Source: Patescibacteria group bacterium (GTDB lineage: Bacteria; Patescibacteriota; Minisyncoccia; Phycocordibacterales; Phycocordibacteraceae). From it: 64,000 nucleotides of DNA. Positions 42,147 through 64,000 of this stretch are shown in pieces. Under the pieces are notes generated by a model. That model saw nothing but the letters and a program-made list of their open reading frames with translations. It had not been told where the DNA came from and ran no database searches. The position numbers were made by a program, and so were the translations under genes. Position 1 is the stretch's first letter; every line of letters begins with the position of its first letter. The stretch is taken from positions 8,049 to 72,048 of the forward strand of contig JAUPKX010000005.1 in assembly GCA_030837225.1 (NCBI GenBank). The letters are read 5' to 3'.

Positions 42147-42178
42147 TTATGCGCGCATAATATTTTATAGCGCGCATA
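42147..42178. promoter_or_regulatory. Two GC-rich boxes sharing the core GCGCGCATA. One is a perfect 14-bp palindrome, TTATGCGCGCATAA (42147-42160). They sit in an otherwise extremely AT-rich intergenic region upstream of the histone-like gene.
   Basis: Read directly: 'ttatgcgcgcataa' and 'tatagcgcgcatac', about 19 bp apart. Confidence 0.35.
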
Positions 42179-42254
42179 CGAAAGAAATTTTTCGTAAGAA
42201 AAACTTCTTCTATGCGGGTCGACAATACTAGTCATAGAAAATTTTCATTGACCT

Positions 42255-42443: not shown

Positions 42444-42462
42444 TCCTTAGGACTCTTGTTGT

Positions 42463-42488
42463 AAAAGCCTCCCTCACGGGAGGCTTTT
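42463..42488 (+). terminator. Rho-independent terminator after the histone-like gene.
   Basis: 'aaaagcctccc-tcac-gggaggctttt' followed by a T-rich tract. Confidence 0.6.
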
Positions 42489-42557
42489 ACGTTTTCTTTC
42501 CTGACTGTTACAGAGAGGGCGAATGCGGTATAGTGCCGATACCTATATAGAGTACGT

Positions 42558-45086: not shown

Positions 45087-45099
45087 TATATAAAAAGAA

Positions 45100-45130
45100 G
45101 AGCCGTCCCGTTTCCAGGGCGGCTCCTTTT
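45100..45130. terminator. Bidirectional hairpin terminator between convergent secA (+) and aspartate kinase (-).
   Basis: 'gagccgtccc-gtttcca-gggcggctc' flanked by A-run and T-run. Confidence 0.55.
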
Positions 45131-45133
45131 CTG

Positions 45134-46474: not shown

Positions 46475-46572
46475 GGCACACCTCCTATTCTGATGTGAGT
46501 GGATACGTTCTCAAGGAACGCCTGTTCGCATCATGCCTATAATACTAGGTAAAGTCAACGTTCTGTGGTACC

Positions 46573-47562: not shown

Positions 47563-47600
47563 GTGGCGGGGGAACTTGTGCCTGTGCTAGCATCACTCCT

Positions 47601-49031: not shown

Positions 49032-49048
49032 GTCGTGGTTGCTAAGTA

Positions 49049-49085
49049 GAAACCACCCGGGTTTGCTCCCGGGTGGTTTCTTTCT
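49049..49085 (+). terminator. Rho-independent terminator after gatB.
   Basis: 'gaaaccacccgg-gtttgctc-ccgggtggtttc' followed by tttctgttt. Confidence 0.6.
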
Positions 49086-49158
49086 GTTTAAATCAGGCTG
49101 GAGTTATGGGTGTTCATAACCTATTCGAAACGAGGCAAGAAAGTATTATAATCCATGC

Positions 49159-50067: not shown

Positions 50068-50175
50068 AATAACAGTTTCTCGTCTCGTATATACGAGATA
50101 GACCAATAAGATTCTAGTTAACGAGATTGGTGCAAATTAGGTAAGATCATCTACTCTAACCGATCTGTTAAAGAT

Positions 50176-50198
50176 AAAGCCCTCATTTGAGGGCTTTA
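50176..50198 (+). terminator. Hairpin terminator downstream of the 49159 gene.
   Basis: 'aaagccctca-ttt-gagggcttt' followed by AT-rich sequence. Confidence 0.5.
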
Positions 50199-50679
50199 TG
50201 TACATAAGGGGTCATGGCAAGCATCCAGATAAAGGGTGCAATATCCTCTATTGTAATGCGCTGCATGCACTTAACTGGTGAAAATACCTTTTTAAGTCTA
50301 ACAATCAGTAACTATACCTATATATAGGATACGTAAGTGCAATAGAGTCTAGCTATTTCAATCCGACTTACTAGGTAAGTACTAACTATAACGGATTGCC
50401 GACCTTACGTGCTTAATTAATGTATAGATACGATAGAGTTCGAGCTTTTTTGTTGAGTCGTGGCTCTTTGCACACAAACTTAAATACTCTAGGTATGAAA
50501 TGTTGATCATGGCGCCTAAATCTTCTGTGAGAATTTTGTTTTTCTTTATAAACAAATTCCTATGGTTGCGATCGATAACTTTGTGAACTTACGCTTAAGA
50601 CTATCCACAAATGAGTATGCGGTAAATGCTAAATAACAAGCTAAAATGTAGCTAATTCGGATATCCGACCTACTGCACC

Positions 50680-53600
50680 TTGAACTCTCTTCTCCAGAAA
50701 AATTTAATCTCAACGAAAGAGGCTTCTGCACTTTCTGGTTACAACGCCGACTACTTGTCGAGACTTTGTCGTGAGAAGAAAATTGCGAGTTCACAAGTTG
50801 GTCGCACGTGGCTGATTGAGAGAGCCTCACTCGAGGTTTTCATGGAGACTCAATTAGATAGGAAAATTGAGCTTGCTGAGAATCTTGCTCGGGAGAGGGA
50901 GCTTGAATATAGAAAGGCAAATAGTTCTGTCACCCAGGTTTTTGAGGCGGGGAATGATCTTGAGAATAAGATGCGCGTGGCAGCGAGTTCAATGCTTGGA
51001 GCTTTTTCCTCTGTACGCATACCACGTTCTATGCCAGTTATGAGTGGTCGTGCATTTGCTGCAGGACTTACTGCAGTCATACTCGGCGCTAGCGTAACAC
51101 TAGCGGGTAGTGGCGTTGTGGCACGCGCAGGTGAAATGTTATTGGCTTCAGCATTTGAGGTTCGCGCACTCGTTGTTACTGCTGTCTCCACATCAAACTC
51201 ACTTGCAGTAGAGAAGACTGCGGAATTTTCTAGAATTGCAGAAGATGAAATAAAAAAAGTAGACACATCGCTTGTTCGTGCGGCAGACACACGAGTGGCA
51301 ATGTTTCCCCTTACTCTCGGTGGAGTCATTGAGAATTCACACGAGCCGGTAGAGATGACTGAACTCGCGTATGCCCGTGCAAATGAAATCTTTGAAACGT
51401 ATCCCGAGCCTATTGCGTCCACGCAGACGGTTGAAAAAATCATGTATGCAGCAATGCACCCTAAAGAAGTGCTGGCAACAATTGCACGTGAGGCGATGTT
51501 TGCATACAGCCGACTTGGCGTGTACGCACTCAACGATATTCAAACCGTCCTCGCTCTTCACCTATATGGAGTTGAGGCGGCAGCGAACGGCCTCCTATCA
51601 GTTAGTGACAATACGAGGGATATCGCAGGACAGGCACCACTAGCTATCGGAAATGCATTTGTTACTACGTCCTCTGCAGTGCTGTCTTCGTACGAACATG
51701 CGGTCTACGCATATGTCGAGAACATTGATGTACTACCGAGCGCTATCACCGGTTTGGTATACGGGCTCGGGAACGGTATTGGCGGCTCAGTAGCGATGGG
51801 TGTACAGACTGCACCGGTTGCCTACGAAGAGAGCGTACTGGCCTTCGTAGAGGAGTCAGTATCTGCAGGATCGATGATCTCCGAAGGCTCGTTCGCCTTT
51901 GGAAAAGAAGCAGATAGAACGGTTTCAGGCCTTCTGGAAGCTGAGGACCGTGCCATAGTCCAGTCAGTAGAGAGTGTAAGGCTGGCCGTTACGAGTATTG
52001 AGAACACGACAGCAAGCGCAGCGCTCGCCATCGAATCAGTACCCTCAGTGGCTACTGACAAAGTCCTTGGAATTGTGGGAGGTATTGCACTTCGTATCGA
52101 GTCGACGGATACCAGCATGCTCTCAGCATCGCCGCTAGTTTCTCTTGATATTGATCGATTCATTCCGGGGTTCCTACGGAACGTAACTGCGGTTCTGGCG
52201 CATGCAGTGGGCAGCGCTTTCCACGGAATCTTCGGTCCGCTCGCTGGTTTCTTCGGCGCGTCGGAAGAAGTGGGACTCGCGGTTATCCCAAGCGATGGGA
52301 GTTCATTCTCTGGACCAAGTGGTGCAACCGGTACGGAAGAGGCAGTGAAAGGAAACACGACGGTCTATACCGGACCGGTAACCATCGTACGTAACGAATA
52401 CCCAACGGTGACGTACGGCGGGGTACCGCAGTCCTACGTCGACGAGCGCTACGAGTTCCTTCGCCGTACGCTTTATAACCGAATCGAAGATGTTTCAAAT
52501 GACGACACGTTCTACGGCGAGGTACGAGATAGCGGTATTTACGATAGCAGCATTGTTGATTCGACTTTTACCAATGGCGAAATCATCGATTCAACAATCA
52601 CTGGAGGAACTATCACGGGCGCTGCCCTCGATGTTTCGACCTCGACTATCACTGGCTCGCTAACTGTTAATGGAGACATCGCAGCTAATGCCATTGTCTC
52701 GACAAGCTCGACAAGTACGAACGCTACGTCAACGAATCTTTTTGCAACTAATGCATCCTTCACCAACCTTCTTGGCGGGAGTGCAACAATAACGAACGCA
52801 ACCTCGACATCGTTCTACGCAACACTCGCAACCATCGTTGATGGATTCTTCACGAACCTCACCGCGACACTCGCAACCATTACGAATGCGGTTATCACAA
52901 ACCTCACCGCAACGAACGCGACGCTCACGAATGCGACATCGACTAACGCTACGTCAACGAACCTCTTCGCCACCAACCTCACGGCTACGAGCGCAACCTC
53001 AACAAACCTCTTTGCTACAAGTGCACGCATCACGACCGGTATCATCGACGCGCTCACCTCACCGCTCGCAACCATAACCACTGCGATTGTCACAAACCTC
53101 ACGGCAACGAACTCAACGCTTACAAACGCAACCTCAACAAACTCGTTCGCACTTTCGTACCTCACCCCGTCCAGACTCTTGTCCGTCGGATCGAATGGCG
53201 TCGCAACCTCAACCAGCCTTTCCTCATGGGTTGCGGGTACCCTAAACCAACTCACCGTAACGGATAACGGTACCGGGGGAATCACACTCTCGCTCCCTTC
53301 GACCATTGCGATCGGCACCTCGCAGGTAACTACCATCCGAAGCGATGGTGCTACCTCGACCTTTGGTGGCGGTATTCAGGCCTCTATTGTCGAGGGAGGG
53401 CAGTATATCGCTGGTCCGTACGTCCTTGCTACCTCAACAACCGCTACCTCTGCATTCTCGGGCAATATTGCAGTTGGCAGGAATGCGACCTTTGGAACCA
53501 GTGCCTCTGATCTCCTTACGGTTAATAGCTCCGTAGCATCAAACCTCATTCCGACCACCAACAACACGTATGACTTCGGCTCAACCGCAAGCTACTGGCG

Positions 53601-56600
53601 CCGGGGCTATATAGACGACCTTACCGTTAACAATCTCTCGGCCGCATCGACTTCTATTGCAGGTACGGTTTCAAACTCGTTTACAATTAACGCCGACAAC
53701 GCGACGAACGACACGGAGGACGTAACACTCATTTTCAAGAGGGGCACCGCATCACCAAATGCGCTCATGACGTGGAATAGCTCAACGGATCGTTTTGAGT
53801 TCAACATGCCGGTATTCTCCGCAACCGGCCTCTTCACGAGCGCAACTTCGACAAACTTCGGCACCACGAACTTCACCCTTAACAGCAACACCTTCACGAG
53901 TCTTCTTGGTACGGGACTCTCGAACGTGAGCGGTGCACTTACGGTTGATTACGACGCCCTCGATTCCGACTTCTTCCGTCAGGGAGGGAACTCATACGCA
54001 ACTACTGCAATGCTCGGTACAAATGATGCTAACGATCTCGCGTTTGAGACGAATGGTACGACGAAGATGACGATCCTTTCGGGAGGGAATGTTGGTATCG
54101 GCACCACGACACCAACCGGCAGACTCTCCATTGTTGCGAGCACAACCGGGGACTCACTCGTGATAGCAAGCACTACGGGCGCCCGCATGCTCACCGTTAA
54201 TCCAGGCGGATCCCTCATCTTCTCTGCAACGGGCCAGTCATACAAAGTGGTGTCTGGCGCAGACGAATATGGCCCAGACATTTTCCTTAATCGCACAATA
54301 GGGACCGAAGCGACCGCGAACGAGCACGGCATCATCGATCGCAACCAATTTGGAAGGGCGACCAAGGCCTATAACTCGTACGATTCTCAAACATACTTCA
54401 CTGGTACGAGTAACTACGACCACTACGCCGGCTTCCAGGCGCGGGGCGTGATGAATTCATCCGGTACGCTGACGGACTACTACTCGTTCTACTCAGCGCC
54501 TCAAGCAAGTGCAGGAACCATAACGAACGTATACGGGCTCAAGGCAGCTAATCCAGCAGGTGCAGGTGCAGTTACGAACAACTACGGTGTCTATATTGAT
54601 AGTCAGACGAAGGGAACGAATAACTTTGCCATCTACACAGATGGCACCACGAAGTCCTATTTCGGAGGAAACGTCGGCATCGGTACAACGACACCATCTT
54701 CTCTCCTCGACCTGTATAAGAGCACGGACGGATACACCAAAATAACCGTACGGAACCCGAACACGGGTACTGATGCGTTAACTGGTATAGATTTCGTGCA
54801 GGACCTGGGCGGCGTGGGATCCTTGTACGCTACAGGAAATACCTTTGACGGAAATGCAGACTTTGGCGCAATGTCAGGCTTCTCGAATAGCCTCTGGTTA
54901 GACGCATCGTTTGAACTAACTGGAGGCTTGAAGCTCGTAGCACGCAATGGAGACATTGGCTTCTATGCAGGAAGTAGATCGACACAGAACGTAACAATAT
55001 CGGGTACGAATGGAAACTTAGGCGTTGGCTCAACCACGCCGTATGCAAGACTCTCTGTTAAGGGAGCAGGTACAACTACCGGTGTTAACTTCCAGACCAC
55101 CAACTCAAGCAACTCACCACTCTTTACGGTACTTGATAGCGGTAACGTTGGTATCGGTACTACAACACCTGCCGAGCTACTCACCATTGATAGCGGAAGT
55201 CTCCGTTTCGAGTCAGTAAGCGCAGGGAGAGGAATACTCGCCAGCAGTAACGGTGTTAACCAGGTGTTCTCACTTACGCGGCAGGATACGGTTGCGTCTG
55301 CCGACCTATCAATATCTGGGTACGGGGGGGTCGGTATTACGGGCGGAAGGACGTCATCTCCTGCTACATCTGCCTACCACTTGTACGTAAATAGTGCCGG
55401 CAACGTTGGTATCGGTTCTACCACTCCAGCTGAGAACCTCACGGTTAACGGAGCAATTCAGTGGGGTAACACAACTCCTTCTACAGGAACAGCAAATATC
55501 TATAACTCAGGACGGCTCGGCACATACAACAGTGGTGCGTCACCGCTTGCACAATACAATTACGTGCAACCAGCAACAGGGAAAGCGCTTGTTGTCTGGA
55601 ACGCAAACAGCAATATAGTTGCAGCGTTCGGTCAGACCGGTAGTGATACGAACACTAACTCCTATTTTGCAGGCAACGTGGGTATTGGTACTACAAGCCC
55701 AGCTCAGAATCTGCATATAGATCAGGGCACAGCAAGTACCCTCCCTATTATTCAGCTTAGCGGAGCAGGCGGAACCATCGCAAAAATTGGTCGGGCAAGT
55801 AATTTCATGAATGCCGGAACTGCCGCTGACCTAGGAATTAATGCTCCGACAAGTCAATCACTGTATCTCGGAGTGGGCGGCTCATCGTTTGTAACACTTA
55901 AATCGACAGGCAACGTGGGTATTGGAACAACGACGCCTATCGGCAAACTCACCGTCTACGAGGATTCTGACGCCGTGATGTACACCGCTAATCCTTCTGC
56001 CAATGTATTCTCAGAAAACTACATTGACACAACCAACAATGTTACCAACCACCGGTCCGTTGCGTACGCTCACCAGTTTTACACTTCTGGTAGCACGATA
56101 GCAGCAGCAACAGAGAAGATGCGTATACACCAAAATGGAAACGTCGGTATTGGTACTACCTCACCTGAAGCAGCGCTCACCGTTAATGGAGATATAAAGA
56201 CAAACGGTGGCTTTACGACATACGCAACAAATGAAGTGTTTAAGGCTATAAACGGCGGTACGAGTGCTGTGGCGGCTCGCTACGGCAATAGCAACAATGA
56301 TTTCTATGTCGGTACAGAAGGCAATACTGCGGGAGGCTACTTCACCGGTGCACTCGCAAATAGCTCTGTACTCTATAGTACCCGCGCAGTGCAGACCATC
56401 ATAGGAGGAGTATCGAGAATGATTATTGATACGTCAGGCAACGTTGGTATTGGTACGACCAGCCCAGAAGGGAAGCTTGATGTCAATGCTGGACTCGGGG
56501 TCTACTCATACATTGGAGGTTCAGTACTGGGACATAGAAGCATCCGTATGGGCGCTGACGCTAGTGGGTATGCAACGATTCAAGGCACAGGAAGAGGTAC

Positions 56601-59600
56601 ACAGATAGGGAGTTTCTTTAACATAACGCTACAGCCAGGCGGTGGCAACGTTGGTATTGGCACTGTGAGTCCTGGGGAAAAGTTAGAGGTTTCTGGAAAT
56701 ATAAAGCTTTCGACATCCGCTAGTTATCTAGCATTTGGCAATCCGAGTACTCCGCTTTACCTTGGTAGCGGAAACTCTTTATTGTTTTCTCCGGATAATA
56801 ATGAGCAATATGCAGTATTAAGGGGCTATGCTGGGGCTGTATTAGCGGTAGGAGGTAATCCGGGGCTGCTCTTAAACGCCAGTAGCAACGTCGGTATTGG
56901 CACGACGAACCCCGGGACCAAGCTCCATGTCCTCTCTACCAATGCCGGCGGAGACTCAAACACCCTCATGCTAGATAACGCTGGAGCATCCGGCATTACT
57001 ACCACGAGTCTCACGTTCGCGAACGGAGGAGCGGTAAAGGCAAGAATAACGGGTGCTGTGTATGGTGATGGATACCTCGCGTTCAACACGAATGACGATA
57101 CTGAGAAAATGCGTATTACCGCAGTAGGCAGGGTCGGTATTGGAACGACTACACCGCAAGGCAAATTCCACGTTAAGGGCTCAGATGGCGAATCCTTACT
57201 AAGAGTGTCTGGCGCAACAGGAGGTATAAGAATACGCCCGTATGTGGACGCAACCTCAGGCACCTACATTGAAAGTGTGAATACTGCAGAAAGTGCCTAT
57301 CTACCGTTGCGTCTTGAAGCCTCAACGACAATATTAGGCATAAACGGCAATGTCGGTATTGGTACAACCACACCGCTTTCTAAACTCCAGGTTTCAACAA
57401 GTGGTGCAGATGCGTTCAGTCTCGATCTTCTTACAGGAAGCTCTCACGATACCGGCATACGCATCGGACGTGGTAGTGGTGCTAATGGTGCAGGAATACA
57501 GATGGTGACTTCCGCTACAGACTATCTTAGTTTCTACGTAAATGGTTCCGCGCTCCCTGCTATTAATACAGCAGCTCAGATGGTGCTTACGGAGGGTGGC
57601 AACGTCGGTATTGGTACCACGGGACCGTTAGGAAAACTCCATGTCCTAACCTCTACCGACACCACACCAAACACCATTGCGGCGTTTGATGCACGGCACG
57701 CTGTCTTCGGTCCAGGCACTGTCGATGGTGTTTCTATCTCTAAGACAACGGGGGGTAGTGCCTACATCAGCTCCGTTCGTCCAGGTATTGCATGGGATCC
57801 GCTAGCTGTACAAGCAAGTACCTTTAGTGTTAATCCTAGTAGCGGTACCACAGCCTTCCATGTTACTGCGGCAAGCAACGTCGGTATCGGCACGGTATCT
57901 CCTGGAAGTAAATTACAAGTTAGTACGGGCAACTCTAGTTATGTAGCCAGCACAGCCGCCTTTTCTGTGCGGAAAAACGAAGAGGGGTACGGACTGTTTG
58001 TTGGTAATGCCAGCTCTGGCAACAGTTGGTTACAGGCAGGCTATTCCGACGGCTCACTACTCTATGACTTGATACTGCAACCTAATGGCGGAAAGGTTGG
58101 TATTGGTACTACGACGCCTTCGGAAAAGCTTTCGGTTGCAGGAGACATCTTTGTGAGTGATGCCACAGACCCAGAACTCAAACTCAATAAGACTAGCGGT
58201 ACTCAAAAAACATTCTCGTTTAATGTAAATAATGACAACGCATTTCAATGGCTAGACAGGACAGCAGGCCTTACGCGCTTGTACCTCACGACAGGCGGCA
58301 ACATGGGTATCGGGGACTACTACGGGGCAACTACCAATACCCCACAGAATAAGCTCTCAGTAGCAGGAAGTGCGTCGATCGGGTATGCCGTGGGTAGTGA
58401 TGTTGCGGCTCCTACCAATGGCCTCATCGTTAATGGCAACGTCGGTATTGGTACTACCACTCCACAGGAGGAACTATCAGTCTCGAAGAACGGCGTTCCA
58501 CAGATTAGCCTTGAAAATAGGAGCGGCACTACTCGTAACGCCCAAATCATATTCCGCAATACAGCGGGTCCTACGTGGCGGCTCGGTACGGACATGAGCA
58601 CCAATAACAATACGGACAACTTCCAAATCTATAAGGATGCCCTAGGTCTTCCGGTGCTTACTATCGACTCCGCGGGTGACGTCGGTATCGGTACCGGACA
58701 TACAAATCCACTCTACCCACTCGATGTAAATGGACTCGCTCTCATTCGCGGATACACGGTTGGTGTTACCGCCGCACTCGCTGATGCCTATAAGTTTACC
58801 CATGACGGCGGAACCTCATTCGTGAACAACCAAGGAGGGAGCTTTGGTGTCGGCACAACGACCCCAACAGTTGAAATGGAAATTGGTGGTAGCAGCTCGC
58901 CATCATTACGTTTGCGTCCGTATTTCGCAGGCGCTCCTGACGCAAGCGGGTACTACACAACAATTAATGCGGCGTACTCTGATGAGGCAATGAATCTTAG
59001 TGTTGGTGGCTACAAGGTGCTCTCAACACTCGGCTACGACACTCCGACTCAGTTGCTTCTCTACACAGGCAACACCGAGCGATTGCGCATTAATTCCTCA
59101 GGCAACGTTGGTATTGGTACCTCGAACCTCTTTAAGCCCCTTACGGTTGAAGTAGGAACTGCGGGAGGTGTTAATCAGGGAATTGTAATAAACAGCTCAC
59201 ACGCTTTCGGTAGCGGCCAGGGAACGGCTGCAGCAGCGCTTGTGTTCGCGCGCAATCGCACTATAGACACCTCATCTTTGTATGCTATGGCGCAGATCGA
59301 TGGAGGAAATGAGAGCGAAACCACGAGTGCATACGGCTACCTTGCGTTCTCAACTGCGAACAGTGGCGGAACGCTGGTGGAGCGAATGCGCACTTCGTCC
59401 TCAGGCAACGTCGGTATTGGTACCACCACTCCAGACTCAAAACTCAATATCCAGATGGCGGGAGATGGAACGGGACTTGCTATAAATTCGAGCTACTCAG
59501 CAGGAGGATACAAAAAAATCATTGACGCCGGTCAGACTGGTTCGGACGGGTATCTCAAAGTGAACGACGCGCTCGGTGCCACGGTGAGTTACTTGAGTGG

Positions 59601-62600
59601 CTACACTTCGAGTCCTTCATATTTCTTGAGTAGTGTCGGTATTGGTACAAGTACCCCGGTAAGTAAGTTCAGTGTGTATCAAGCATCAGGTGCAGGAAGG
59701 AGCATTGCCGAATTCTCCAATGGTAACAGGGACCGGATGCTCCAGGTCGTACATGATATTTCTGGAGACTCAACCTCTTACATCGGTCTCAATGCCCGAG
59801 AATTTGGATCGACTCTTGGACGTGACTTCGTCATTCAGACAGGAGGGACTGAAAGAATGCGCGTAGCGTATTCAACAGGCAACGTCGGTATTGGTACCGT
59901 GAATCCCGGCGCAACGCTCGACGTTAAGAGCCAGATCAACCTAACTAATGCAACCGGTAATTCGATGGTAGGAGTCAGGGGGACTGAGTTCGGATATGCT
60001 GCGGGCTACAAGGCGCTGCAGATAGGAGCTACATCTGGCACCTACACCGTAAGTATCGGCTACGATCCGTCGACCAACGCAAGCCCAGCATTCACGGGGG
60101 ACGGCAGTGAGGTTATCTTCAGGAACGGCGTGAAGTTCCTAACGCCGAACGCTGCGAATAATAGCTATCTCAGCACCATGACGATGCTGAATGGCAACGT
60201 CGGTATTGGCGAGACTGCTCCAAGTGAGAAACTCGTTGTTGCAGGGCAGGGAACAGGCAGGATGCTCGTTGGAGACGTAGGGTTCGGTGACGGGTACACG
60301 GGCCTTTCGATGAATGGCGTACTTTCCACCACGAATTACAACCTCTTAGGCTCGCCTGGTCAGGCGCACTTTTGGATTAATCGTGCAACAGGAGGGAATA
60401 TCAGCTTCCGTGAGAATAACGGTACCGACCAGATGACTATTGCGTCAGGTGGTAACGTTGGTATTGGTGTAACTGCCCCTGACGGCAAGCTTCATATTCT
60501 CAACAATACGGCCTCGCAAGCGTTAAGTAGCGGTAGTATTCGGCTCGCCGGTTCCGCATACGCATCTTCAGGATGGGCAATGCGCATACCTGATGACGGA
60601 TCTACGGGAAATTTGTACTTCGACAGGGAATACGCCGGCTGGGCTTCAACCCCTGTCCTTATGTTGCAACGATCTACAGGCAACGTAGGTATTGGCACAA
60701 CAAACCCTACCGCTAAGCTAACGTTGAATGGAACTGCCGGAGCTAATCCAAATGCTGGTGCAGAGATTGAGTATACAAATGCGCTTATTTTCCAATCAAG
60801 CAGCGCACATTCCGTTGGTGCAATTAAAACAGTGCAACCAACTGGGTACTATGTGGATGCTGCCGACATGACTTTCTCTACAGGATACGGCAGTTTAACT
60901 GAACGTATGCGTATTCAGGGCAGCACAGGCAACGTCGGTATTGGCACCACAACTCCATCCGGAACCCTTGATATATACAAAGCAGGCAATGCCACCCTTA
61001 ATATAACGGGTACTAACATCGCGGGCATAAACCTGAAGGGTGATAATGGTAGTGGATTTGCAAACATAAACACCTACAACGACGGTACCTTGCGTATAGG
61101 GGCAAGCGTCTCTGGATACAACTCAGGCACAACAGATCTTGTGATTAAGAATGGTTATGTTGGTATGGGTACTGCAAGTCCGCTAGCCAGGTTACAGGTT
61201 GGTGATAGTGCATCTCTCACTAATTATCAAGGTGCAACTGTAGGTATCGTACGGCCTGCCGGCTCAGGCTCATGGTTAGAGTTAGCTGACAACACAACTT
61301 ACGGCTCGGCGTTCCGTATTTCGCAGGATTCAAATAGTGGAATAGCTTTTAACTCTAATGGTCGTGATATTGGTTTTAGGGCAAGCGGCTATAGTACTGC
61401 CATTGCCGATGCGCAGCTTGTTTTGAAGTCGTCGGGTAATGTCGGTGTCGGCGCCCAAATTCCGCTGGCAAAATTACACGTACAGCAAGCGCTACCAACT
61501 AGCATTGGCAGTTTGCCATCAAATGTCGGCCTAATCTTAGATTCAAACACTCACAACTACTTGCTATTTAGAAACACCGCCGATAATAGTACGTATTCCG
61601 GACTTCAATTCCAAGATAATAATGTCGGGGGATATTTGGTATTCCAAAATTTTAGTGGCGGCGTCACAAGCGACAGCATGCTCTTTGGTACATATCAGGA
61701 CTTTGTCTTCCAAACTGGTACTTCGGAAACAGTTGGGGGCAAGAGCACAGTTATGACGATTAAACAGACTGGAAACGTTGGTATTGGTACAACCAATCCT
61801 CTCGCTATAGATGGCGGTGCTGCAACACGCTTTCACACTAAAGTTACGGGTGGAACAGGGAATATTGAAGTGGCTCGATTTGAAGGAGGCGACGATACCG
61901 ATAACACCTACGCAGTGTTGCGCGTAAACCATAACAACGATCGCGGTTTCTTTGTGAAAGGTGGGCGGCAGACAGGGGACACGGCCATAGCTACCATGGG
62001 ACTCACAAACAATGGAGGAGCAATGACAGACATCATGACATTCCTCGGCAGCAACGTTGGTATTGGAAATACCTCTCCAGGCGAAAAACTCACCATTGAA
62101 GGCAACAGTGCTGCCATGCTCATTCAGACGGCATCTGATCCTACGGTCTATCGAGCAAAGATCACTGCTAACTACAACTATACGAACTCAGTACTCTTCA
62201 CGGGACTCAACAACACGGAAATTATTGGCCAGTATGCGTATAACGTTACGGTAGGTAATTCGTCAGGTAACGTTGGTGTCGGTACAACAGGTCCAACTCA
62301 GAAGTTCTCTATTCTCGCCACGGGCATATCTAATCAATTCGAACTTCGCAATAATAATCAGGCCCTTTGGATTCGCCAAGGATACAAATCGGATGGAACC
62401 GCTACCCCCGCCGCAGACACAAATAATGTGCAGTTCCAGTCAAGTGGAAGCTCTAGCGGTACCTTCTCCTTCACTAGCGGAAACGATGAAGTGTTGCGTA
62501 TGACACTTGGTAGTAGTGGTATACGATTCAATGCCTATGGAGCAGGTACGCTCGTGACTGACGCTTCAGGAAATATAACCGCATCATCTGACGAACGTCT

Positions 62601-64000
62601 CAAGGACATAGAGGGGGAGTTCACTCGTGGTCTGGATGATCTCATGAACATCAACCCCATTAACTATCGCTGGAAAGCGTCAACTGGATTAGATACAGTT
62701 AATAGCTATAGCGGATTCTCAGCACAGGATGTTCAGAATGCTATTCCTGAGGCCATCGATACTGATCCTCAAGGGTATCTCACACTCTCTGATCGTCCGA
62801 TTCTTGCAGCATCCGTTAATGCCATTAAGGAGCTCAACCTTAGAACCCTTTCGCTCGCACCTAGTGCACAGAACCAGGAAGCACACTCGCTCGCTGTTTC
62901 AAGCGACGCCTCAATCGCTGGCATACTCACCGTTACTGGAATCGGAACCTTTAGCGACTCGCTTACTGCGGCAAGCGTGCTTACGGATGGTTCTGTAACA
63001 GCACTATCGTTCCTCACAGGAACGGACGGAACTCTTCCACAAGAAGTCCTTACGGGAGGCAACGCAGATCTCTTCAAGATGGCGAGCTACGCTATAACAG
63101 GTATACAGGCACTCTCCGAGCGTACTGACCTCCTTGCGACTCGTATTGATGAGATTGATGCCCGCGTAACAGCACTCGAGAACGGCTCTACAGCGGACGA
63201 GATATCCGGCGCCGTTGGCCTTACGGTTGCAACCATAAAGAGCGCACTCCAGACCCTCGGTATCTATCTTGAAAACGGGGTAGCTACATTCGAGACCCTC
63301 GTATTCCGCCAGCTTGCGGTTGCCAAGGACACCAATGGCGACTCCTCAGCAGGAAGCGAGACCATCCTTGCGGGCAACACGGTTGTTGAAGTAGAGAACC
63401 CCTACGTCCTTCCAACCTCAAAGATCTTTGTTACCTTCACGGGACCGATTCAAGGCGCTTGGTACATCAGCAACAAAGAGGAAGGGAAGTTCCGGGTAAC
63501 GCTTGCAACAGGCCAGTCCGCAGACGTATCCTTCGACTACTTCATCCTTCAGACTGAAGGCCAGCTAGCGTCCCCTGGCGCTGCGGCGCCAATACAGACT
63601 CCGAACGACCCAGCTCCATCGAACGATCCGCTCCCTCCTGTCTTCCCAGGTGAGGGAACAGGCACCACAACACCGGTTATGGGCTCTGGAGACACAACAC
63701 CGCCTTCTATCACCTTAAACGGCCCTGCAGCGCGCGAAATAGACCAAGGTGCCACTTGGATTGATCAAGGCGCTACTGCCTCAGATGAGACCGATGGCGA
63801 CCTCACAAGCTCCATACAGGTCCAAGGAACTGTTGATACGGGTACACCAGGCACCTATACGGTATCGTACTCGGTATCAGACGCAGCAGGGAATGAGGCG
63901 CATGTATCCAGGATAGTCTCAGTGCAGGTTGTATCAGAGCCAGCACCAAGTCCAGAACCGGCGCCAGAGCCAGCACCAAGCCCAGAACCGGCGCCAGCAC
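50680..64000 (+). CDS. Giant repeat-rich membrane-anchored surface / fibre-like protein, 5' partial: it runs off the window end, so at least 4,440 codons lie in the window. It is absent from the supplied ORF track because no stop codon occurs. The start is probably TTG at 50680; the first in-frame ATG is at 50842.
   Basis: Manual translation in the frame whose codon starts are congruent to 1 mod 3. A TAA lies at 50653-50655, then there is no stop through 64000. The frame was re-verified at 50992, 52441, 55441, 58441, 61441 and 63901. The product has a coherent domain architecture, detailed in the sub-features. Confidence 0.8.
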   Translation, partial: MNSLLQKNLISTKEASALSGYNADYLSRLCREKKIASSQVGRTWLIERASLEVFMETQLDRKIELAENLARERELEYRKANSSVTQVFEAGNDLENKMRVAASSMLGAFSSVRIPRSMPVMSGRAFAAGLTAVILGASVTLAGSGVVARAGEMLLASAFEVRALVVTAVSTSNSLAVEKTAEFSRIAEDEIKKVDTSLVRAADTRVAMFPLTLGGVIENSHEPVEMTELAYARANEIFETYPEPIASTQTVEKIMYAAMHPKEVLATIAREAMFAYSRLGVYALNDIQTVLALHLYGVEAAANGLLSVSDNTRDIAGQAPLAIGNAFVTTSSAVLSSYEHAVYAYVENIDVLPSAITGLVYGLGNGIGGSVAMGVQTAPVAYEESVLAFVEESVSAGSMISEGSFAFGKEADRTVSGLLEAEDRAIVQSVESVRLAVTSIENTTASAALAIESVPSVATDKVLGIVGGIALRIESTDTSMLSASPLVSLDIDRFIPGFLRNVTAVLAHAVGSAFHGIFGPLAGFFGASEEVGLAVIPSDGSSFSGPSGATGTEEAVKGNTTVYTGPVTIVRNEYPTVTYGGVPQSYVDERYEFLRRTLYNRIEDVSNDDTFYGEVRDSGIYDSSIVDSTFTNGEIIDSTITGGTITGAALDVSTSTITGSLTVNGDIAANAIVSTSSTSTNATSTNLFATNASFTNLLGGSATITNATSTSFYATLATIVDGFFTNLTATLATITNAVITNLTATNATLTNATSTNATSTNLFATNLTATSATSTNLFATSARITTGIIDALTSPLATITTAIVTNLTATNSTLTNATSTNSFALSYLTPSRLLSVGSNGVATSTSLSSWVAGTLNQLTVTDNGTGGITLSLPSTIAIGTSQVTTIRSDGATSTFGGGIQASIVEGGQYIAGPYVLATSTTATSAFSGNIAVGRNATFGTSASDLLTVNSSVASNLIPTTNNTYDFGSTASYWRRGYIDDLTVNNLSAASTSIAGTVSNSFTINADNATNDTEDVTLIFKRGTASPNALMTWNSSTDRFEFNMPVFSATGLFTSATSTNFGTTNFTLNSNTFTSLLGTGLSNVSGALTVDYDALDSDFFRQGGNSYATTAMLGTNDANDLAFETNGTTKMTILSGGNVGIGTTTPTGRLSIVASTTGDSLVIASTTGARMLTVNPGGSLIFSATGQSYKVVSGADEYGPDIFLNRTIGTEATANEHGIIDRNQFGRATKAYNSYDSQTYFTGTSNYDHYAGFQARGVMNSSGTLTDYYSFYSAPQASAGTITNVYGLKAANPAGAGAVTNNYGVYIDSQTKGTNNFAIYTDGTTKSYFGGNVGIGTTTPSSLLDLYKSTDGYTKITVRNPNTGTDALTGIDFVQDLGGVGSLYATGNTFDGNADFGAMSGFSNSLWLDASFELTGGLKLVARNGDIGFYAGSRSTQNVTISGTNGNLGVGSTTPYARLSVKGAGTTTGVNFQTTNSSNSPLFTVLDSGNVGIGTTTPAELLTIDSGSLRFESVSAGRGILASSNGVNQVFSLTRQDTVASADLSISGYGGVGITGGRTSSPATSAYHLYVNSAGNVGIGSTTPAENLTVNGAIQWGNTTPSTGTANIYNSGRLGTYNSGASPLAQYNYVQPATGKALVVWNANSNIVAAFGQTGSDTNTNSYFAGNVGIGTTSPAQNLHIDQGTASTLPIIQLSGAGGTIAKIGRASNFMNAGTAADLGINAPTSQSLYLGVGGSSFVTLKSTGNVGIGTTTPIGKLTVYEDSDAVMYTANPSANVFSENYIDTTNNVTNHRSVAYAHQFYTSGSTIAAATEKMRIHQNGNVGIGTTSPEAALTVNGDIKTNGGFTTYATNEVFKAINGGTSAVAARYGNSNNDFYVGTEGNTAGGYFTGALANSSVLYSTRAVQTIIGGVSRMIIDTSGNVGIGTTSPEGKLDVNAGLGVYSYIGGSVLGHRSIRMGADASGYATIQGTGRGTQIGSFFNITLQPGGGNVGIGTVSPGEKLEVSGNIKLSTSASYLAFGNPSTPLYLGSGNSLLFSPDNNEQYAVLRGYAGAVLAVGGNPGLLLNASSNVGIGTTNPGTKLHVLSTNAGGDSNTLMLDNAGASGITTTSLTFANGGAVKARITGAVYGDGYLAFNTNDDTEKMRITAVGRVGIGTTTPQGKFHVKGSDGESLLRVSGATGGIRIRPYVDATSGTYIESVNTAESAYLPLRLEASTTILGINGNVGIGTTTPLSKLQVSTSGADAFSLDLLTGSSHDTGIRIGRGSGANGAGIQMVTSATDYLSFYVNGSALPAINTAAQMVLTEGGNVGIGTTGPLGKLHVLTSTDTTPNTIAAFDARHAVFGPGTVDGVSISKTTGGSAYISSVRPGIAWDPLAVQASTFSVNPSSGTTAFHVTAASNVGIGTVSPGSKLQVSTGNSSYVASTAAFSVRKNEEGYGLFVGNASSGNSWLQAGYSDGSLLYDLILQPNGGKVGIGTTTPSEKLSVAGDIFVSDATDPELKLNKTSGTQKTFSFNVNNDNAFQWLDRTAGLTRLYLTTGGNMGIGDYYGATTNTPQNKLSVAGSASIGYAVGSDVAAPTNGLIVNGNVGIGTTTPQEELSVSKNGVPQISLENRSGTTRNAQIIFRNTAGPTWRLGTDMSTNNNTDNFQIYKDALGLPVLTIDSAGDVGIGTGHTNPLYPLDVNGLALIRGYTVGVTAALADAYKFTHDGGTSFVNNQGGSFGVGTTTPTVEMEIGGSSSPSLRLRPYFAGAPDASGYYTTINAAYSDEAMNLSVGGYKVLSTLGYDTPTQLLLYTGNTERLRINSSGNVGIGTSNLFKPLTVEVGTAGGVNQGIVINSSHAFGSGQGTAAAALVFARNRTIDTSSLYAMAQIDGGNESETTSAYGYLAFSTANSGGTLVERMRTSSSGNVGIGTTTPDSKLNIQMAGDGTGLAINSSYSAGGYKKIIDAGQTGSDGYLKVNDALGATVSYLSGYTSSPSYFLSSVGIGTSTPVSKFSVYQASGAGRSIAEFSNGNRDRMLQVVHDISGDSTSYIGLNAREFGSTLGRDFVIQTGGTERMRVAYSTGNVGIGTVNPGATLDVKSQINLTNATGNSMVGVRGTEFGYAAGYKALQIGATSGTYTVSIGYDPSTNASPAFTGDGSEVIFRNGVKFLTPNAANNSYLSTMTMLNGNVGIGETAPSEKLVVAGQGTGRMLVGDVGFGDGYTGLSMNGVLSTTNYNLLGSPGQAHFWINRATGGNISFRENNGTDQMTIASGGNVGIGVTAPDGKLHILNNTASQALSSGSIRLAGSAYASSGWAMRIPDDGSTGNLYFDREYAGWASTPVLMLQRSTGNVGIGTTNPTAKLTLNGTAGANPNAGAEIEYTNALIFQSSSAHSVGAIKTVQPTGYYVDAADMTFSTGYGSLTERMRIQGSTGNVGIGTTTPSGTLDIYKAGNATLNITGTNIAGINLKGDNGSGFANINTYNDGTLRIGASVSGYNSGTTDLVIKNGYVGMGTASPLARLQVGDSASLTNYQGATVGIVRPAGSGSWLELADNTTYGSAFRISQDSNSGIAFNSNGRDIGFRASGYSTAIADAQLVLKSSGNVGVGAQIPLAKLHVQQALPTSIGSLPSNVGLILDSNTHNYLLFRNTADNSTYSGLQFQDNNVGGYLVFQNFSGGVTSDSMLFGTYQDFVFQTGTSETVGGKSTVMTIKQTGNVGIGTTNPLAIDGGAATRFHTKVTGGTGNIEVARFEGGDDTDNTYAVLRVNHNNDRGFFVKGGRQTGDTAIATMGLTNNGGAMTDIMTFLGSNVGIGNTSPGEKLTIEGNSAAMLIQTASDPTVYRAKITANYNYTNSVLFTGLNNTEIIGQYAYNVTVGNSSGNVGVGTTGPTQKFSILATGISNQFELRNNNQALWIRQGYKSDGTATPAADTNNVQFQSSGSSSGTFSFTSGNDEVLRMTLGSSGIRFNAYGAGTLVTDASGNITASSDERLKDIEGEFTRGLDDLMNINPINYRWKASTGLDTVNSYSGFSAQDVQNAIPEAIDTDPQGYLTLSDRPILAASVNAIKELNLRTLSLAPSAQNQEAHSLAVSSDASIAGILTVTGIGTFSDSLTAASVLTDGSVTALSFLTGTDGTLPQEVLTGGNADLFKMASYAITGIQALSERTDLLATRIDEIDARVTALENGSTADEISGAVGLTVATIKSALQTLGIYLENGVATFETLVFRQLAVAKDTNGDSSAGSETILAGNTVVEVENPYVLPTSKIFVTFTGPIQGAWYISNKEEGKFRVTLATGQSADVSFDYFILQTEGQLASPGAAAPIQTPNDPAPSNDPLPPVFPGEGTGTTTPVMGSGDTTPPSITLNGPAAREIDQGATWIDQGATASDETDGDLTSSIQVQGTVDTGTPGTYTVSYSVSDAAGNEAHVSRIVSVQVVSEPAPSPEPAPEPAPSPEPAPA
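52560..53170 (+). repeat. Thr/Asn/Ala/Leu-rich low-complexity segment of the giant protein, with quasi-periodic 'ATSTNLFATN' / 'LTATNATLTN' units. It is dense in N-x-T/S sequons.
   Basis: Translation: '...TNATSTNLFATNASFTNLLGGSATITNATSTSFYATLATIVDGFFTNLTATLATITNAVITNLTATNATLTNATSTNATSTNLFATNLTATSATSTNLFATSA...'. Confidence 0.6.
54084..62300 (+). repeat. Array of about 30 divergent tandem protein repeats, about 70-100 aa each, within the giant gene. Each is marked by the motif (S/G)GNVGIGTTxP followed by xKL(x)V.
   Basis: The nucleotide word 'ggcaacgt(c/t)ggtat(t/c)gg' recurs near 54084, 54664, 55150, 55410, 55672, 55905, 56141, 56436, 56645, 56887, 57130, 57341, 57600, 57885, 58095, 58436, 58678, 59101, 59404, 59640, 59878, 60193, 60455, 60676, 60928, 61150, 61436, 61775, 62052 and 62270. 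Several copies share identical 20-23-nt stretches. Confidence 0.75.
62587..62856 (+). other. Peptidase S74 / intramolecular chaperone auto-processing domain (endosialidase-type CIMCD), internal to the giant protein.
   Basis: 'SSDERLKDIEGEFTRGLDDLMNINPINYRWKASTGLDTVNSYSGFSAQDVQNAIPEAIDTDPQGYLTLSDRPILAASVNAIKELN' matches the family consensus (S-D-x-R-L-K, Y-RWK, GF-AQ-V, P-E, GYL, AIKEL). Confidence 0.75.
63701..63921 (+). other. DUF5011/Ig-like surface domain within the giant protein, downstream of the S74 domain.
   Basis: 'PPSITLNGPAAREIDQGATWIDQGATASDETDGDLTSSIQVQGTVDTGTPGTYTVSYSVSDAAGNEAHVSRIVSV' follows the DUF5011 pattern (ItLnG...G..y.DpGatA.D..DGdlt..v...g.vdt...GtYtvtY.vtD.aGN.a...R.V.V). 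Confidence 0.5.
63937..64000 (+). repeat. Tandem 30-nt repeat encoding an (EPAPSPEPAP)n Pro/Glu linker. It continues past the window edge.
   Basis: 'gagccagcaccaagtccagaaccggcgcca' at 63937-63966 and 'gagccagcaccaagcccagaaccggcgcca' at 63967-63996. Confidence 0.7.

Follow-up and report, generated by a model that had tools for sequence, protein, structure and literature searches.

The window, a stretch of 64,000 nucleotides from a Paceibacteria (Parcubacteria/CPR) bacterium, ends in a giant gene on the plus strand (50680–63999), the strand that also carries its parts, the partner gene and the upstream elements described below. In the six-frame translation, the frame whose codons start at positions congruent to 1 modulo 3 has its last stop codon at 50653–50655 and then runs through 4,448 sense codons from 50656 to 63999, which confirms the uninterrupted frame of more than 13.3 kb reported in the original prediction. 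The next-longest open stretch in all six frames of the window is 850 codons, and 4,448 open codons at ~52% GC rule out a chance origin of the frame. The choice of start, previously left between TTG 50680 and ATG 50842, is settled in favor of TTG, as both homolog N-termini and the alignment of this codon with the ATG of other loci show, so that 4,440 codons of the gene lie in the window. The C-terminus had been expected to lie well beyond the window; in fact all that is missing is one Pro codon followed by the stop (about 64000–64005), as judged from the length of the gene call described below and from a homolog (P0006) whose C-terminus reads ...PEPAPAP, and the 4,441-residue protein ends one residue past the window.

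Over their matches to the window, five independent Logan assemblies show 100% identity and neither gaps nor indels; the longest match covers 42327–60067. On the longest Logan contig, which reaches past the window, a gene of 4,387 amino acids is called from ATG 50842; this is the length predicted for that start with the frame open to 64002 and therefore supports the open frame. The independent DNA was compared up to 60067, and for the last 3.9 kb the evidence is the length of this gene call and a JGI homolog from a related strain. The DNA repeats within the gene are only 60–75% identical over at most 66 nt, which makes a collapse of the repeats implausible. Positions 50680–63999, with one further codon and the stop, are thus a single genuine gene.

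The protein begins with an excisionase/MerR-type HTH_17 domain (50707–50853; PF12728, E = 9.4e-7, 29.4 bits against the Pfam cut-off of 27), which occupies residues 18–66 of the frame or residues 10–58 counted from the TTG. It also matches TIGR01764 (E = 2.3e-5), under the cut-off of that model, and its motif LSGYNADYLSRLCR..GR.W is invariant among relatives (LSGY..DY..LCR..GR.W). A single transmembrane helix (51052–51123, residues 125–148), the sole 19-residue window with a Kyte–Doolittle hydropathy above 1.6 in 4,440 residues, is preceded by an arginine cluster, RIPRSMPVMSGR; because the positive charges sit on the N-terminal side, the helix is predicted to be an uncleaved, N-in signal anchor and the HTH domain to be cytoplasmic. 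The helix is followed by an Ala/Val/Ser/Glu-rich, lineage-specific stalk (51124–52359, residues 149–560) that matches nothing in Pfam, in NCBIfam, or among the PDB sequences at E ≤ 1 and has 22 relatives among 1.84 billion representatives. The next region (52600–53259) is rich in Thr (26%) and Asn (10%), keeps a strict five-residue (15-nt) period of the form N-[A/L]-[T/F]-[S/A]-T that includes the direct-repeat families D5–D7, and is dense in N-x-S/T sequons. This region does not match the pentapeptide-repeat family PF00805, whose repeats have the form A(D/N)LXX, there being no Pfam match at E ≤ 0.01, and it has no counterpart among the PDB sequences at E ≤ 1; NCBIfam profiles gave nothing useful in any slice of the protein. 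A conserved pre-array region (53260–54084, residues 861–1135) completes the N-terminal part.

The center of the protein is an array of ~31 fiber modules (54085–62586, residues 1136–3969), each delimited by a "capping-loop" motif, GNVGIGTTxPxxKLxV. We mapped 31 G-N-V-G-I-G motifs between nucleotides 54085 and 62266, 26 strict and five relaxed, with a median spacing of 83 residues and a range of 46–194. In phmmer searches of the PDB, the array matched the Bdellovibrio proteins Bd3182 (residues 632–922, E = 7.5e-8) and Bd2133 (residues 662–1031, E = 8.5e-8), and more weakly the Bd1334 structures (E = 5e-3 to 8e-3); the Bdellovibrio alignments pass through GRVGVGTTAPTSALHV-type motifs. PHROG tail-fiber families were matched with E-values of 1e-17 to 1e-28, and the modules have more than 1,600 metagenomic homologs at ~30% identity. 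An AF2 monomer model of a 361-residue stretch of the array is all-beta, at a confidence too low for interpretation (pLDDT 62). The homologies suggest that the modules are of the kind that forms the intertwined trimeric beta-helix and beta-sandwich shafts of phage tail fibers and of the Bdellovibrio MAT fibers.

The array runs into a Peptidase_S74 intramolecular chaperone/autoprotease domain (62587–62904; PF13884, 39.6 bits against a cut-off of 22, E = 6.3e-10), which conforms to the S74 chaperone-domain fold. Its predicted scissile and catalytic residue, Ser3970 (62587–62589), and Lys3975 lie in an intact catalytic dyad motif, S3970-D-E-R-L-K3975 (SDxxxK), and all 22 homologs that extend over this site keep both the Ser and the Lys. 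The domain is internal, with 472 residues following the Ser, ~300 of which lie past the chaperone domain. These comprise a long helix that is a coiled-coil candidate (63070–63183; residues 189–226 of the AF2 model, pLDDT about 65–80), a conserved beta-sandwich domain to which no family was assigned (63259–63555), and a bacterial surface Ig-like domain, PF16403, formerly DUF5011 (63709–63924; 80.7 bits against a cut-off of 27). The Pro/Glu/Ala-rich tail (63925–63999) contains a 30-nt tandem repeat (TRF, period 30, 2.1 copies), and a tail of this type ends all family members. A scan of 2.9 million viral contigs found no relative of the module after the S74 domain. The S74 domain itself is absent from four of the ten complete cassette orthologs, and S74 maturation is consequently not universal in the cassette; moreover, ~300 conserved residues past the domain, unlike in phage and MAT fibers, mean that cleavage here may differ in its consequence or may not occur.

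The architecture first proposed for the product is borne out by these data. The HTH-like domain, the membrane anchor, the Peptidase_S74 domain and the DUF5011 Ig-like domain all hold, the helical region corresponds to the stalk, whose helicity is putative, the Thr/Asn-rich region is recovered by composition and period, about 30 "GNVGIGTTxP" units had been anticipated where 31 motifs are found, and the coiled-coil segment and the PE-rich linker correspond to the long modeled helix and to the PE/PA-rich end. The domain order and the MAT and PHROG homologies support the proposal of one giant gene with a fiber- or adhesin-like product, and the PHROG matches, with E-values down to 1e-28, support a possible derivation from phage tail fibers.

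The giant gene is the second member of a two-gene cassette. Its partner (49159–50067) encodes a 302-residue protein with an HTH_17-like N-terminus, an acidic, Pro-rich linker, a transmembrane helix near the C-terminus and a short external tail. The Pfam match of the partner domain is weak (E = 7.8e-4, 20.1 bits, below the threshold of 27), and it aligns with the HTH domain of the giant protein by BLASTP at E = 7e-14. In 70 of 80 reference loci, an ortholog of the partner stands directly before a large HTH-TM gene, and the HTH columns are at least 70% identical across the 70 partner proteins. Upstream of the cassette, GatB is found in 76, Obg in 68 and SecA in 62 of the 80 loci, and the order Wzy/TPR, murB, secA, obg, gatB, small gene and giant gene is kept in about 76 of these 80 Paceibacteria reference loci; synteny is not conserved downstream. 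The giant gene had also been described as immediately downstream of a 20-kb glycan-biosynthesis island. The island lies at about 20.5–41 kb in the window, and 9.6 kb of housekeeping genes separate the two, the interval holding murB, secA, an amino-acid-kinase gene, obg, gatB and the small HTH gene (41053–50067). Any link between island and giant gene is weak, being one of co-location, and the Wzy_C/TPR gene alone belongs to the conserved synteny block.

The intergenic region suggests that the giant gene is its own transcription unit. A terminator-like hairpin, AAAGCCCTCATTTGAGGGCTTT, is seen after the small gene (50176–50197), and at the same position different inverted repeats occur in related loci: AAAACGCTC..GAGCGTTTT in L008, CACCCTCAA..TTGAGGGTG in L010 and ACCTATATATAGGT in L016 and L050. 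Comparative alignment further revealed a nearly invariant, extended −10-like box, G-n-TAAAAT (50640–50647), which in an anchored view of 57 loci has the consensus "aG.TA.aAT" 23–28 nt 5′ of the start codon and is a putative promoter. A consensus promoter and terminator scan of 49900–50900 returned no sites; its sigma-70 model needs a −35 box, and the hairpin was not called. The box is followed by a conserved leader element, TTCGGATATCCGAC (50656–50669), of the form TTCGG-N4-CCGAC, which holds a perfect 12-nt palindrome (50657–50668) equivalent to a 4-bp stem with a 4-nt loop and a calculated RNA hairpin energy of −4.2 kcal/mol. The 14-mer occurs once in the window and, in its exact form, once per locus in 27 reference loci; if up to three mismatches are allowed, 61 of 80 loci have it no more than 80 nt upstream of the large gene. 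Its arms are invariant and its central four nucleotides variable, and in most loci it directly adjoins the ATG. No Rfam family was found in the leader. A coding reading of the 45 invariant nucleotides before the TTG was rejected, as an in-frame TAA precedes them and a single nucleotide is deleted inside them in L016 and L050.

Comparison with relatives reveals a mosaic protein. Orthologs of like architecture have full lengths of 2,307–4,524 residues, and the N-terminal ~1,000–1,150 residues are 66–86% identical to the orthologs in L006 and L008, after which it falls away where the array begins. Measured against L006, identity is 81–86% over the N-terminal 1,000 residues and about 30% over the array; with L008 it is 16–30% over the array and 71–85% over the C-terminal module. 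Overall, the array shares 16–34% identity with its closest orthologs, while SecA is 95% identical to that of both L006 and L008. At the level of sequence, the array is thus hypervariable between conserved anchor and S74 modules. Such a pattern, a hypervariable array with conserved ends, would be the signature expected of a determinant of host specificity or of a major target of phages or of host defenses.

How Paceibacteria/Parcubacteria, one of the largest radiations of ultra-small bacteria that depend on hosts and are uncultivated, recognize and hold their hosts is unknown. Paceibacteria are described as episymbionts whose attachment structures are unknown, and the only culture-based studies ask for the attachment apparatus to be examined structurally (PMC10936435). 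In the CPR predator Vampirococcus lugosii, giant membrane proteins of 1,392–4,163 residues were proposed as host-attachment factors (PMC8080830). These proteins, from a different CPR lineage (Absconditabacteria), resemble the giant protein by description in being the largest proteins of their lineage and predicted to be membrane-located; neither an HTH anchor nor an S74 domain nor a syntenic cassette is described for them. In the literature searched, we found no prior description of HTH-anchored giant CPR fibers or of a membrane-anchored HTH_17 domain.

The closest known counterparts are the MAT (mosaic adhesive trimer) fibers of Bdellovibrio bacteriovorus, which are trimeric and carry capping-loop motifs of the form V-G-G/N-pi-x-x-P-x-x-x-L (Caulton et al. 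2024, PMC10769870). The S74 subgroup of the MATs, such as Bd3182, has in common with the giant protein the capping loop GxVGxGTxxPxxxL, the SDxxxK motif of S74 and a mosaic, diversifying architecture; the MATs, likewise, are cellular, non-phage proteins of a bacterium living on other cells. The two also differ. The MATs have ~1,000 residues, whereas the giant protein, with 4,441 residues and ~31 modules, is four to five times longer. All 21 MATs possess a conserved domain, beta-rich and ~130 residues long, after the signal peptide (PMC10769870), which, compared by description, does not occur in the giant protein, anchored instead by HTH_17 and a transmembrane helix. In the MAT S74 subgroup the protein terminates in the S74 domain, while here the domain is internal and is followed by the beta-sandwich and Ig-like domains. 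The distal tip is the part that varies in the MATs, and the conservation of both ends around a variable middle counts against the attachment-fiber reading. The giant gene is also paired with a small HTH-TM gene, and its CPR lineage, unlike Bdellovibrio, probably has no outer membrane.

We consider a membrane-rooted host-attachment fiber, encoded by a vertically inherited cassette as a giant bitopic protein, to be the best reading of the locus, with a probability of roughly 70%; trimerization, autocleavage, surface display, fiber length and the adhesive role are what we infer from the domains and homologies above. The giant gene would be transcribed from its own promoter-like box with a short, hairpin-bearing leader. 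The first 124 residues, comprising HTH_17 and a charged juxtamembrane segment, would remain in the cytoplasm, one signal-anchor helix would span the membrane, and ~4,290 residues would be exported in the order of stalk, Thr/Asn segment, ~31 modules, S74 domain, and conserved beta-sandwich with the Ig-like module. Three chains would trimerize under the control of the S74 domain, which would then cleave at Ser3970 and free the C-terminal 472 residues. In the membrane-rooted fiber that remains, the array alone would measure ~0.13–0.2 µm, as scaled from the dimensions of Bd3182, and the rapidly diversifying shaft and tip would touch the surface of the host or prey cell. The cassette is inherited vertically at its fixed position after secA, obg and gatB, with the giant gene as its variable member. 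As a means by which episymbionts grip their hosts, the cassette is a strong candidate.

A pure adhesin model does not account for the HTH domain, and an unlikely alternative makes the giant a membrane-tethered DNA-binding or signaling protein, in which the HTH_17 pair binds TTCGG-N4-CCGAC for autoregulation or for tethering the nucleoid to the envelope and the fiber is a sensor of host contact. The HTH_17 match of the giant protein exceeds the Pfam cut-off, and no other part of either protein is as well conserved as the HTH. The 12-nt palindrome, with invariant arms and a variable center, is typical of a dimeric HTH operator; it is present once per locus at the start of the giant gene in 61 of 80 loci and co-occurs with the HTH pair. 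The same element is equally explained, however, as a 5′-terminal mRNA hairpin in a leader of ~15 nt past the −10-like box, and because its arms never vary, neither covariation nor its absence can discriminate between operator and hairpin. Membrane-bound DNA-binding proteins have precedents in regulators of the ToxR/CadC type and in MyRF, which also has an S74/ICA domain. In MyRF (PDB 7DC3), the DNA-binding and ICA domains lie on the same, cytoplasmic side and cleavage frees the transcription factor; in the giant protein, HTH and S74 lie on predicted opposite sides of the membrane, ~3,800 residues apart, so the DNA-binding domain cannot be set free as it is in MyRF, and the Ndt80-like DNA-binding domain of MyRF is unrelated to HTH_17. 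In addition, RodZ uses its HTH for protein interaction and not for DNA binding, so that an HTH-TM protein need not bind DNA. This alternative is compatible with an adhesive fiber and differs in making signaling the key function. A slightly less probable form is a previously undescribed system of Paceibacteria that couples adhesion to DNA across the membrane: the nearly invariant cytoplasmic HTH_17 domains of the two bitopic proteins would bind the leader element, and the state of the fiber would feed back on transcription or tether the locus. If this were true, the assembly, tension or host contact of a fiber of ~0.1–0.2 µm would regulate its own gene or anchor a chromosomal locus.

The doubtful case that the protein is a structural component of the envelope, such as an S-layer-like sheath, a spacer or a glycocalyx scaffold, and not a host-binding adhesin, falls somewhat below these. 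The core syntenic position beside murB, secA and the Wzy_C/TPR gene in most related genomes would suit such a component, as would the N-x-S/T sequons of the Thr/Asn region with a glycosylation island 10–30 kb upstream. However, neither SLH nor other S-layer domains were found by Pfam or NCBIfam in any slice of the protein, which leaves the S-layer-like sheath suggested earlier unsupported, and the homology is to fibers rather than to lattice-forming proteins. The array diverges to an extreme degree between genomes that are almost identical, which is likewise typical of diversification driven by host or phage and not of a housekeeping scaffold.

It is very improbable that the gene was captured from a prophage, tailocin or mobile element. 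Although PHROG tail-fiber profiles and phage tailspike structures match both the repeats and the S74 domain, the gene keeps a fixed position after gatB in about 76 of 80 divergent genomes, its flanks are housekeeping genes, and no phage, prophage or tailocin cluster is found near it; the N-terminal HTH, the transmembrane helix and the stalk are cellular and lineage-specific, and the absence of relatives of the post-S74 module from the viral contigs argues in the same direction. In phage fibers with a chaperone domain (K1F endosialidase, 3GW6; T5 pb1, 4UW8; PF13884; PHROGs 9942 and 18345), this domain is terminal and discarded, whereas the giant protein is membrane-anchored, far longer and continues for ~300 residues after it. 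An assembly or frameshift artifact, a pseudogene or a mosaic of separate genes is scarcely credible, for although the gene is very long and repetitive and independent DNA was inspected to 60067, the identical, indel-free Logan assemblies, the 4,387-residue call on a separate contig, repeat units at most 75% identical in DNA, the shared colinear architecture of orthologs of 3,239–4,524 residues and 13.3 kb free of stops all speak against it.

With the membrane-rooted attachment fiber as the preferred reading, a single odd reading frame has become a defined, testable locus: a cassette at a fixed address, with conserved anchoring and maturation modules and a shaft homologous to the fibers by which Bdellovibrio recognizes its prey. 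What is new here is that the gene has a partner gene and a conserved synteny, that its array is hypervariable and that a conserved cis-element precedes it. Gene callers systematically miss the TTG start and thereby truncate the HTH domain, which has hidden this architecture in the databases. The predicted cleavage site at Ser3970 offers a handle for experiments, as do the conserved cis-element and the HTH pair for studies of regulation. The array diverges to about 25–30% identity while the SecA proteins of the genomes are 95% identical, and its conserved flanks could allow this variable part to be amplified and typed in environmental samples.

We translated frame 1 mod 3 of the plus strand and found a stop at 50653-50655 followed by 4,448 sense codons to 63999; no other open stretch of the window, in any frame, exceeds 850 codons. 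Since the G+C content of the window is ~52%, a chance origin is excluded, and the uninterrupted frame of more than 13.3 kb put forward in the original prediction is borne out. Five Logan contigs from other sequencing runs (SRR24011132/133/156/159/160), each assembled independently, are gap-free and 100% identical to the window, with the longest match at 42327-60067. Repeat collapse is implausible, as copies of the repeated DNA share no more than 60-75% identity over stretches of ≤66 nt. The giant-gene region is no assembly artefact, with independent DNA inspected to 60067. The longest Logan contig (22,649 bp) extends ~975 bp past the window, and the gene called on it from ATG 50842 has 4,387 residues, which is exactly what a frame open to 64002 would give. 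Across the final part of the protein, P0006, the nearest homolog of the C-terminus, shows no difference from the window; it ends ...PEPAPAP, one residue past the last codon of the window, which is consistent with this gene call. From both results, the giant protein has 4,441 amino acids. The full length and C-terminus had been placed beyond the window; the stop does lie outside, but only it and the last codon are missing.

The start codon, TTG 50680 or ATG 50842, was resolved as TTG 50680 by four lines of evidence. The HTH_17 Pfam match starts at frame residue 18 (nt 50707), 5' of ATG 50842; the N-termini of homologs coincide with the TTG position (MNxLL..NLISTKEAS.LSGYNADYLSRLCR); a Leu-codon start is called in two full-length orthologs (LNALLQKNF... 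and LNTLLNGNL...); and an anchored alignment places the TTG opposite the ATG that most of 57 related loci use. On these comparisons we regard the start as settled. The HTH is lost from gene calls that pick the ATG, and several database entries of the family are truncated in this way. Automatic calls often begin at an internal Met and lose the N-terminal HTH partly or wholly, such as the Logan call (ATG 50842) and the homologs P0246 (METQVDRK), P0247 (MLSGYNADY), P0249, and P0254, so that databases under-represent the HTH-TM-fibre architecture.

Except for the helical nature of the stalk, which is putative, everything originally listed, from the HTH to the Pro-rich end, was found in the giant protein (TTG numbering). 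HTH_17 (PF12728; 29.4 bits, cut-off 27) occupies aa 10-58, followed by a charged juxtamembrane segment (aa 59-124) and the sole hydrophobic helix of the protein (aa 125-148), whose Arg residues on the N-terminal side indicate an N-in signal anchor. The Ala/Val/Ser/Glu-rich stalk (aa 149-560) has no match in Pfam, NCBIfam, or the PDB. The Thr/Asn-rich segment (aa 641-860) keeps a strict 5-residue register, N-[A/L]-[T/F]-[S/A]-T, which shows as 15-nt repeats in the DNA, and is dense in N-x-S/T sequons. The array (aa 1136-3969) contains 31 modules with a median length of 83 aa (range 46-194), each opening with ...(M/L)xI...GNVGIGTTxPxxKLxV. Peptidase_S74 (PF13884; 39.6 bits, cut-off 22) begins at Ser3970-Asp-Glu-Arg-Leu-Lys3975 and is followed by two long helices, a β-sandwich modelled very confidently in the predicted structure, a Pro-rich linker, an Ig-like domain (PF16403, 80.7 bits), and a Pro/Glu/Ala tail. 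The only cysteine in the entire protein is located in the cytoplasmic HTH.

Searched against all PDB sequences with phmmer, the array matches exclusively proteins of Bdellovibrio bacteriovorus (8OJN/8ONB/8ONC, E 7.5e-8; 8OND, 8.5e-8; also 8ON4/8OML), which are Bd3182(632-922), Bd2133(662-1031), and Bd1334 fragments (PMC10769870). The alignments pass directly through the GRVGVGTTAPTSALHV-type motifs. These mosaic adhesive trimer (MAT) proteins are trimeric fibres on the cell surface with which the predatory bacterium recognizes prey; their shafts are intertwined β-helices between "capping loops" with the consensus V-G-G/N-pi-x-x-P-x-x-x-L, and 13 of the 21 members terminate in an autoproteolytic S74 domain with SDxxxK (PMC10769870). 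Phage tail-fibre PHROG profiles (phrog_18345, phrog_9942) also match the array (E 1e-17 to 1e-28), which supports the proposed fibre-like repeats and their possible relation to phage tail fibres. A word-indexed search of 5.8 billion proteins gave >1,600 proteins at ~30% identity from many phyla, often with S74. Given these homologs and the tail-fibre matches, the building block is common and its use here uncommon.

Global alignments to the closest orthologs, in the reference loci L006 and L008, show that identity breaks sharply at the array. The L006 ortholog is 81-86% identical in aa 1-1000, falls to 55% in aa 1001-1250, and stays at 26-34% across the array; for the L008 ortholog, the values are 66-84% (aa 1-1000), 16-30% (aa 1251-4000), and 71-85% (final 440 residues). 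SecA is 95% identical between the window and these genomes. The array thus forms a hypervariable cassette flanked by a conserved anchor and a conserved S74 maturation module, a signature expected of a molecule that hosts, phages, or competitors push to diversify.

The partner gene (49159-50067, 302 aa) lies just upstream of the giant gene. Its N-terminal HTH is of the same kind (BLASTP E 7e-14), and it continues into a long acidic/Pro-rich linker with a TM helix close to the C-terminus. Scanning an alignment of the N-terminal module against one genome per GTDB species gave 107 relatives, of which 80 loci were kept, all from metagenome-assembled genomes. Their taxon labels are nearly all Patescibacteria (Paceibacterota, Parcubacteria, Kaiserbacteria, Minisyncoccia); many are labelled "uncultured Candidatus Saccharibacteria", and the rest are unclassified except for one labelled archaeon. 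A small gene (~230-345 aa) followed by a same-strand large gene with an N-terminal HTH and a TM helix at ~aa 90-180 was found in 70 of the 80 loci. Most large genes leave the 10-kb flank at >1,000 to >3,800 aa, and the complete ones encode 825-3,704 aa. S74 is present in six of ten complete cassette orthologs, and four of these six also carry the Ig-like domain.

In the window, the upstream genes are all housekeeping (Wzy_C/TPR, murB, secA, an amino-acid-kinase gene on the minus strand, obg, and gatB). The conserved order is Wzy/TPR-murB-secA-obg-gatB-small-large, with GatB upstream of the cassette in 76/80 loci, Obg in 68/80, and SecA in 62/80. The closest loci (L006, L007, L008) share 95% identity in SecA, 97% in Obg, and 91-92% in GatB with the window, and the block persists down to ~56-60% SecA identity; downstream of the cassette, no conservation of genes was found among the reference loci. 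Because this order is kept, the cassette is an old, vertically inherited core locus. A mobile element was rejected: the upstream synteny is kept, the lack of conservation downstream and the absence of phage genes near the cassette fit vertical descent, and 2.9 million viral contigs contain no relative of the post-S74 module. The stalk is far narrower in distribution than the cassette: 1.84 billion representatives, scanned exhaustively with phmmer, yielded the window-type stalk in only 22 proteins, the full-length ones being 2,307-4,524 aa with identical colinear architecture.

Two variations were observed within the family. A second large HTH-TM gene immediately follows the first in one locus (L019:18566-21325), and extra HTH matches lie ~230 nt apart around the small gene in five others (L076, L077, L078, L083, L084), which suggests tandem duplication or alternative starts inside the cassette. 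Many Parcubacteria homologs of the β-sandwich and Ig module match Pfam Intein_splicing (PF14890, Hint-like; P0019, P0023, P0025, and P0027 among others; L066:17206-19605), beside S74 in some homologs and with S74 absent in others, hinting that a second autoprocessing domain may take this position.

The spacer between the two genes is unusually long, 612 nt in the window and 513 nt in the median of 70 loci. A hairpin follows the small-gene stop, its inverted repeat kept while its sequence differs between loci. The ~45 nt directly ahead of the start are near-invariant although the proteins of the compared loci are only 33-40% identical; coding constraint is ruled out by a preceding in-frame TAA and a 1-nt deletion in L016 and L050. 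The consensus of 57 loci anchored on the TTCGG-N4-CCGAC element is aG.TA.aAT.TAgtTAATTCGGaTATCCGAC followed by ATG, in which aG.TA.aAT reads as a putative extended -10-like box located 23-28 nt ahead of the start codon. The ~15-nt leader after this box is essentially the element itself, adjoining the start codon; in the clade of the window, 9-10 additional nt are present (10 in the window, CTACTGCACC) and the start is TTG. The arms are invariant and the centre variable. The exact 14-mer occurs once in the window and once per locus in 27 reference loci, and in 61/80 loci a copy with ≤3 mismatches is found no more than 80 nt upstream of the large gene. As RNA, it would form a 4-bp hairpin with a tetraloop (-4.2 kcal/mol). 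We read the region as the giant gene's own putative promoter and a short leader that lacks a Shine-Dalgarno sequence and carries a 5'-terminal hairpin, perhaps stabilising the 13-kb mRNA. Equally, the palindrome may be an operator for the cassette's own HTH domains, an odd combination that could prove to be more. Further conserved blocks in the spacer (50068-50679; compared in L006, L008-L011, L016, and L050) are TCTCGTCTCGTATATACGAGAT directly after the partner's stop, TTTAACTGGTGAAAAT at ~50270, the palindrome ACCTATATATAGG at ~50316-50330, half-site-like ATCCGAC repeats at ~50365 and ~50405, and CTATCCACAAA at ~50600.

The giant protein would be inserted N-in with its ~4,290-residue ectodomain exported; by analogy with phage fibres and Bd3182, S74 would bring three chains into register and then cleave before Ser3970. 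Cleavage would leave aa 1-3969 as a fibre rooted in the membrane and release 472 residues comprising chaperone, helices, β-sandwich, Ig-like domain, and tail. The presence of secA in the synteny block is no evidence of a specific link to this export. In Bd3182, a tip module of ~135 residues is 60 Å long and the entire fibre ~550 Å (PMC10769870); scaled from these values, the 2,834-residue array alone would span ~0.13-0.2 µm, about as much as an ultra-small cell. Contact with structures on the host surface would be made by the hypervariable modules. The Paceibacteria in culture live as episymbiotic parasites with an attachment apparatus that is still uncharacterised (PMC10936435), and giant membrane proteins of 1,392-4,163 aa in another CPR lineage are proposed attachment factors (PMC8080830). 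The fibre model leaves unexplained the near-invariant cytoplasmic HTH domains of both cassette proteins and the strong conservation of ~300 residues after S74.

The giant protein thus resembles MAT and tail-fibre-type S74 fibres in shaft homology and probably in working mode, but departs from them in several respects. It lacks one defining MAT feature, a conserved β-rich N-domain after a signal peptide, and differs from MAT fibres in which part varies and in being 4-5 times longer. Unlike MAT and tail fibres, it is anchored by an HTH and a TM helix and has a partner gene, and its S74 is internal with a conserved extension, whereas phage and MAT proteins lack the ~300 post-S74 residues. Size alone is unexceptional, since proteins >10,000 aa are known elsewhere. 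No description of the cassette was found in the library of literature searched. The cassette offers a concrete and conserved candidate, accessible to experiment, for the apparatus that sets host specificity in a major uncultivated radiation.

The predicted ~20-kb glycan-biosynthesis island upstream is present at 20485-41056 by its gene content: epimerases/dehydratases, six GT4-type and two GT2 glycosyltransferases, a polysaccharide deacetylase, a flippase-like Polysacc_synt protein, methyltransferases, a PMT_2-like GT-C enzyme, and a Wzy_C+TPR protein. Solely the Wzy_C/TPR gene lies inside the synteny block conserved with the cassette. Fibre glycosylation is conceivable given the many sequons of the Thr/Asn region. 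Just upstream of the island are a TrwB/TraG-like type IV coupling-protein homolog (17449-19173) and then a Lamin-tail and PKD domain protein (19040-20488). LAGLIDADG-encoding rRNA insertions and group I introns are typical of CPR bacteria. In the window, the 16S rRNA gene appears as two separate Rfam matches (7183-7763 and 8361-9460), divided by an insert encoding a LAGLIDADG_2 homing endonuclease (ORF 7826-8482), and a group I intron (9923-10730) encoding a LAGLIDADG_3 protein (ORF 9978-10706) is followed by tRNA-Ile(GAT) at 11119-11194.
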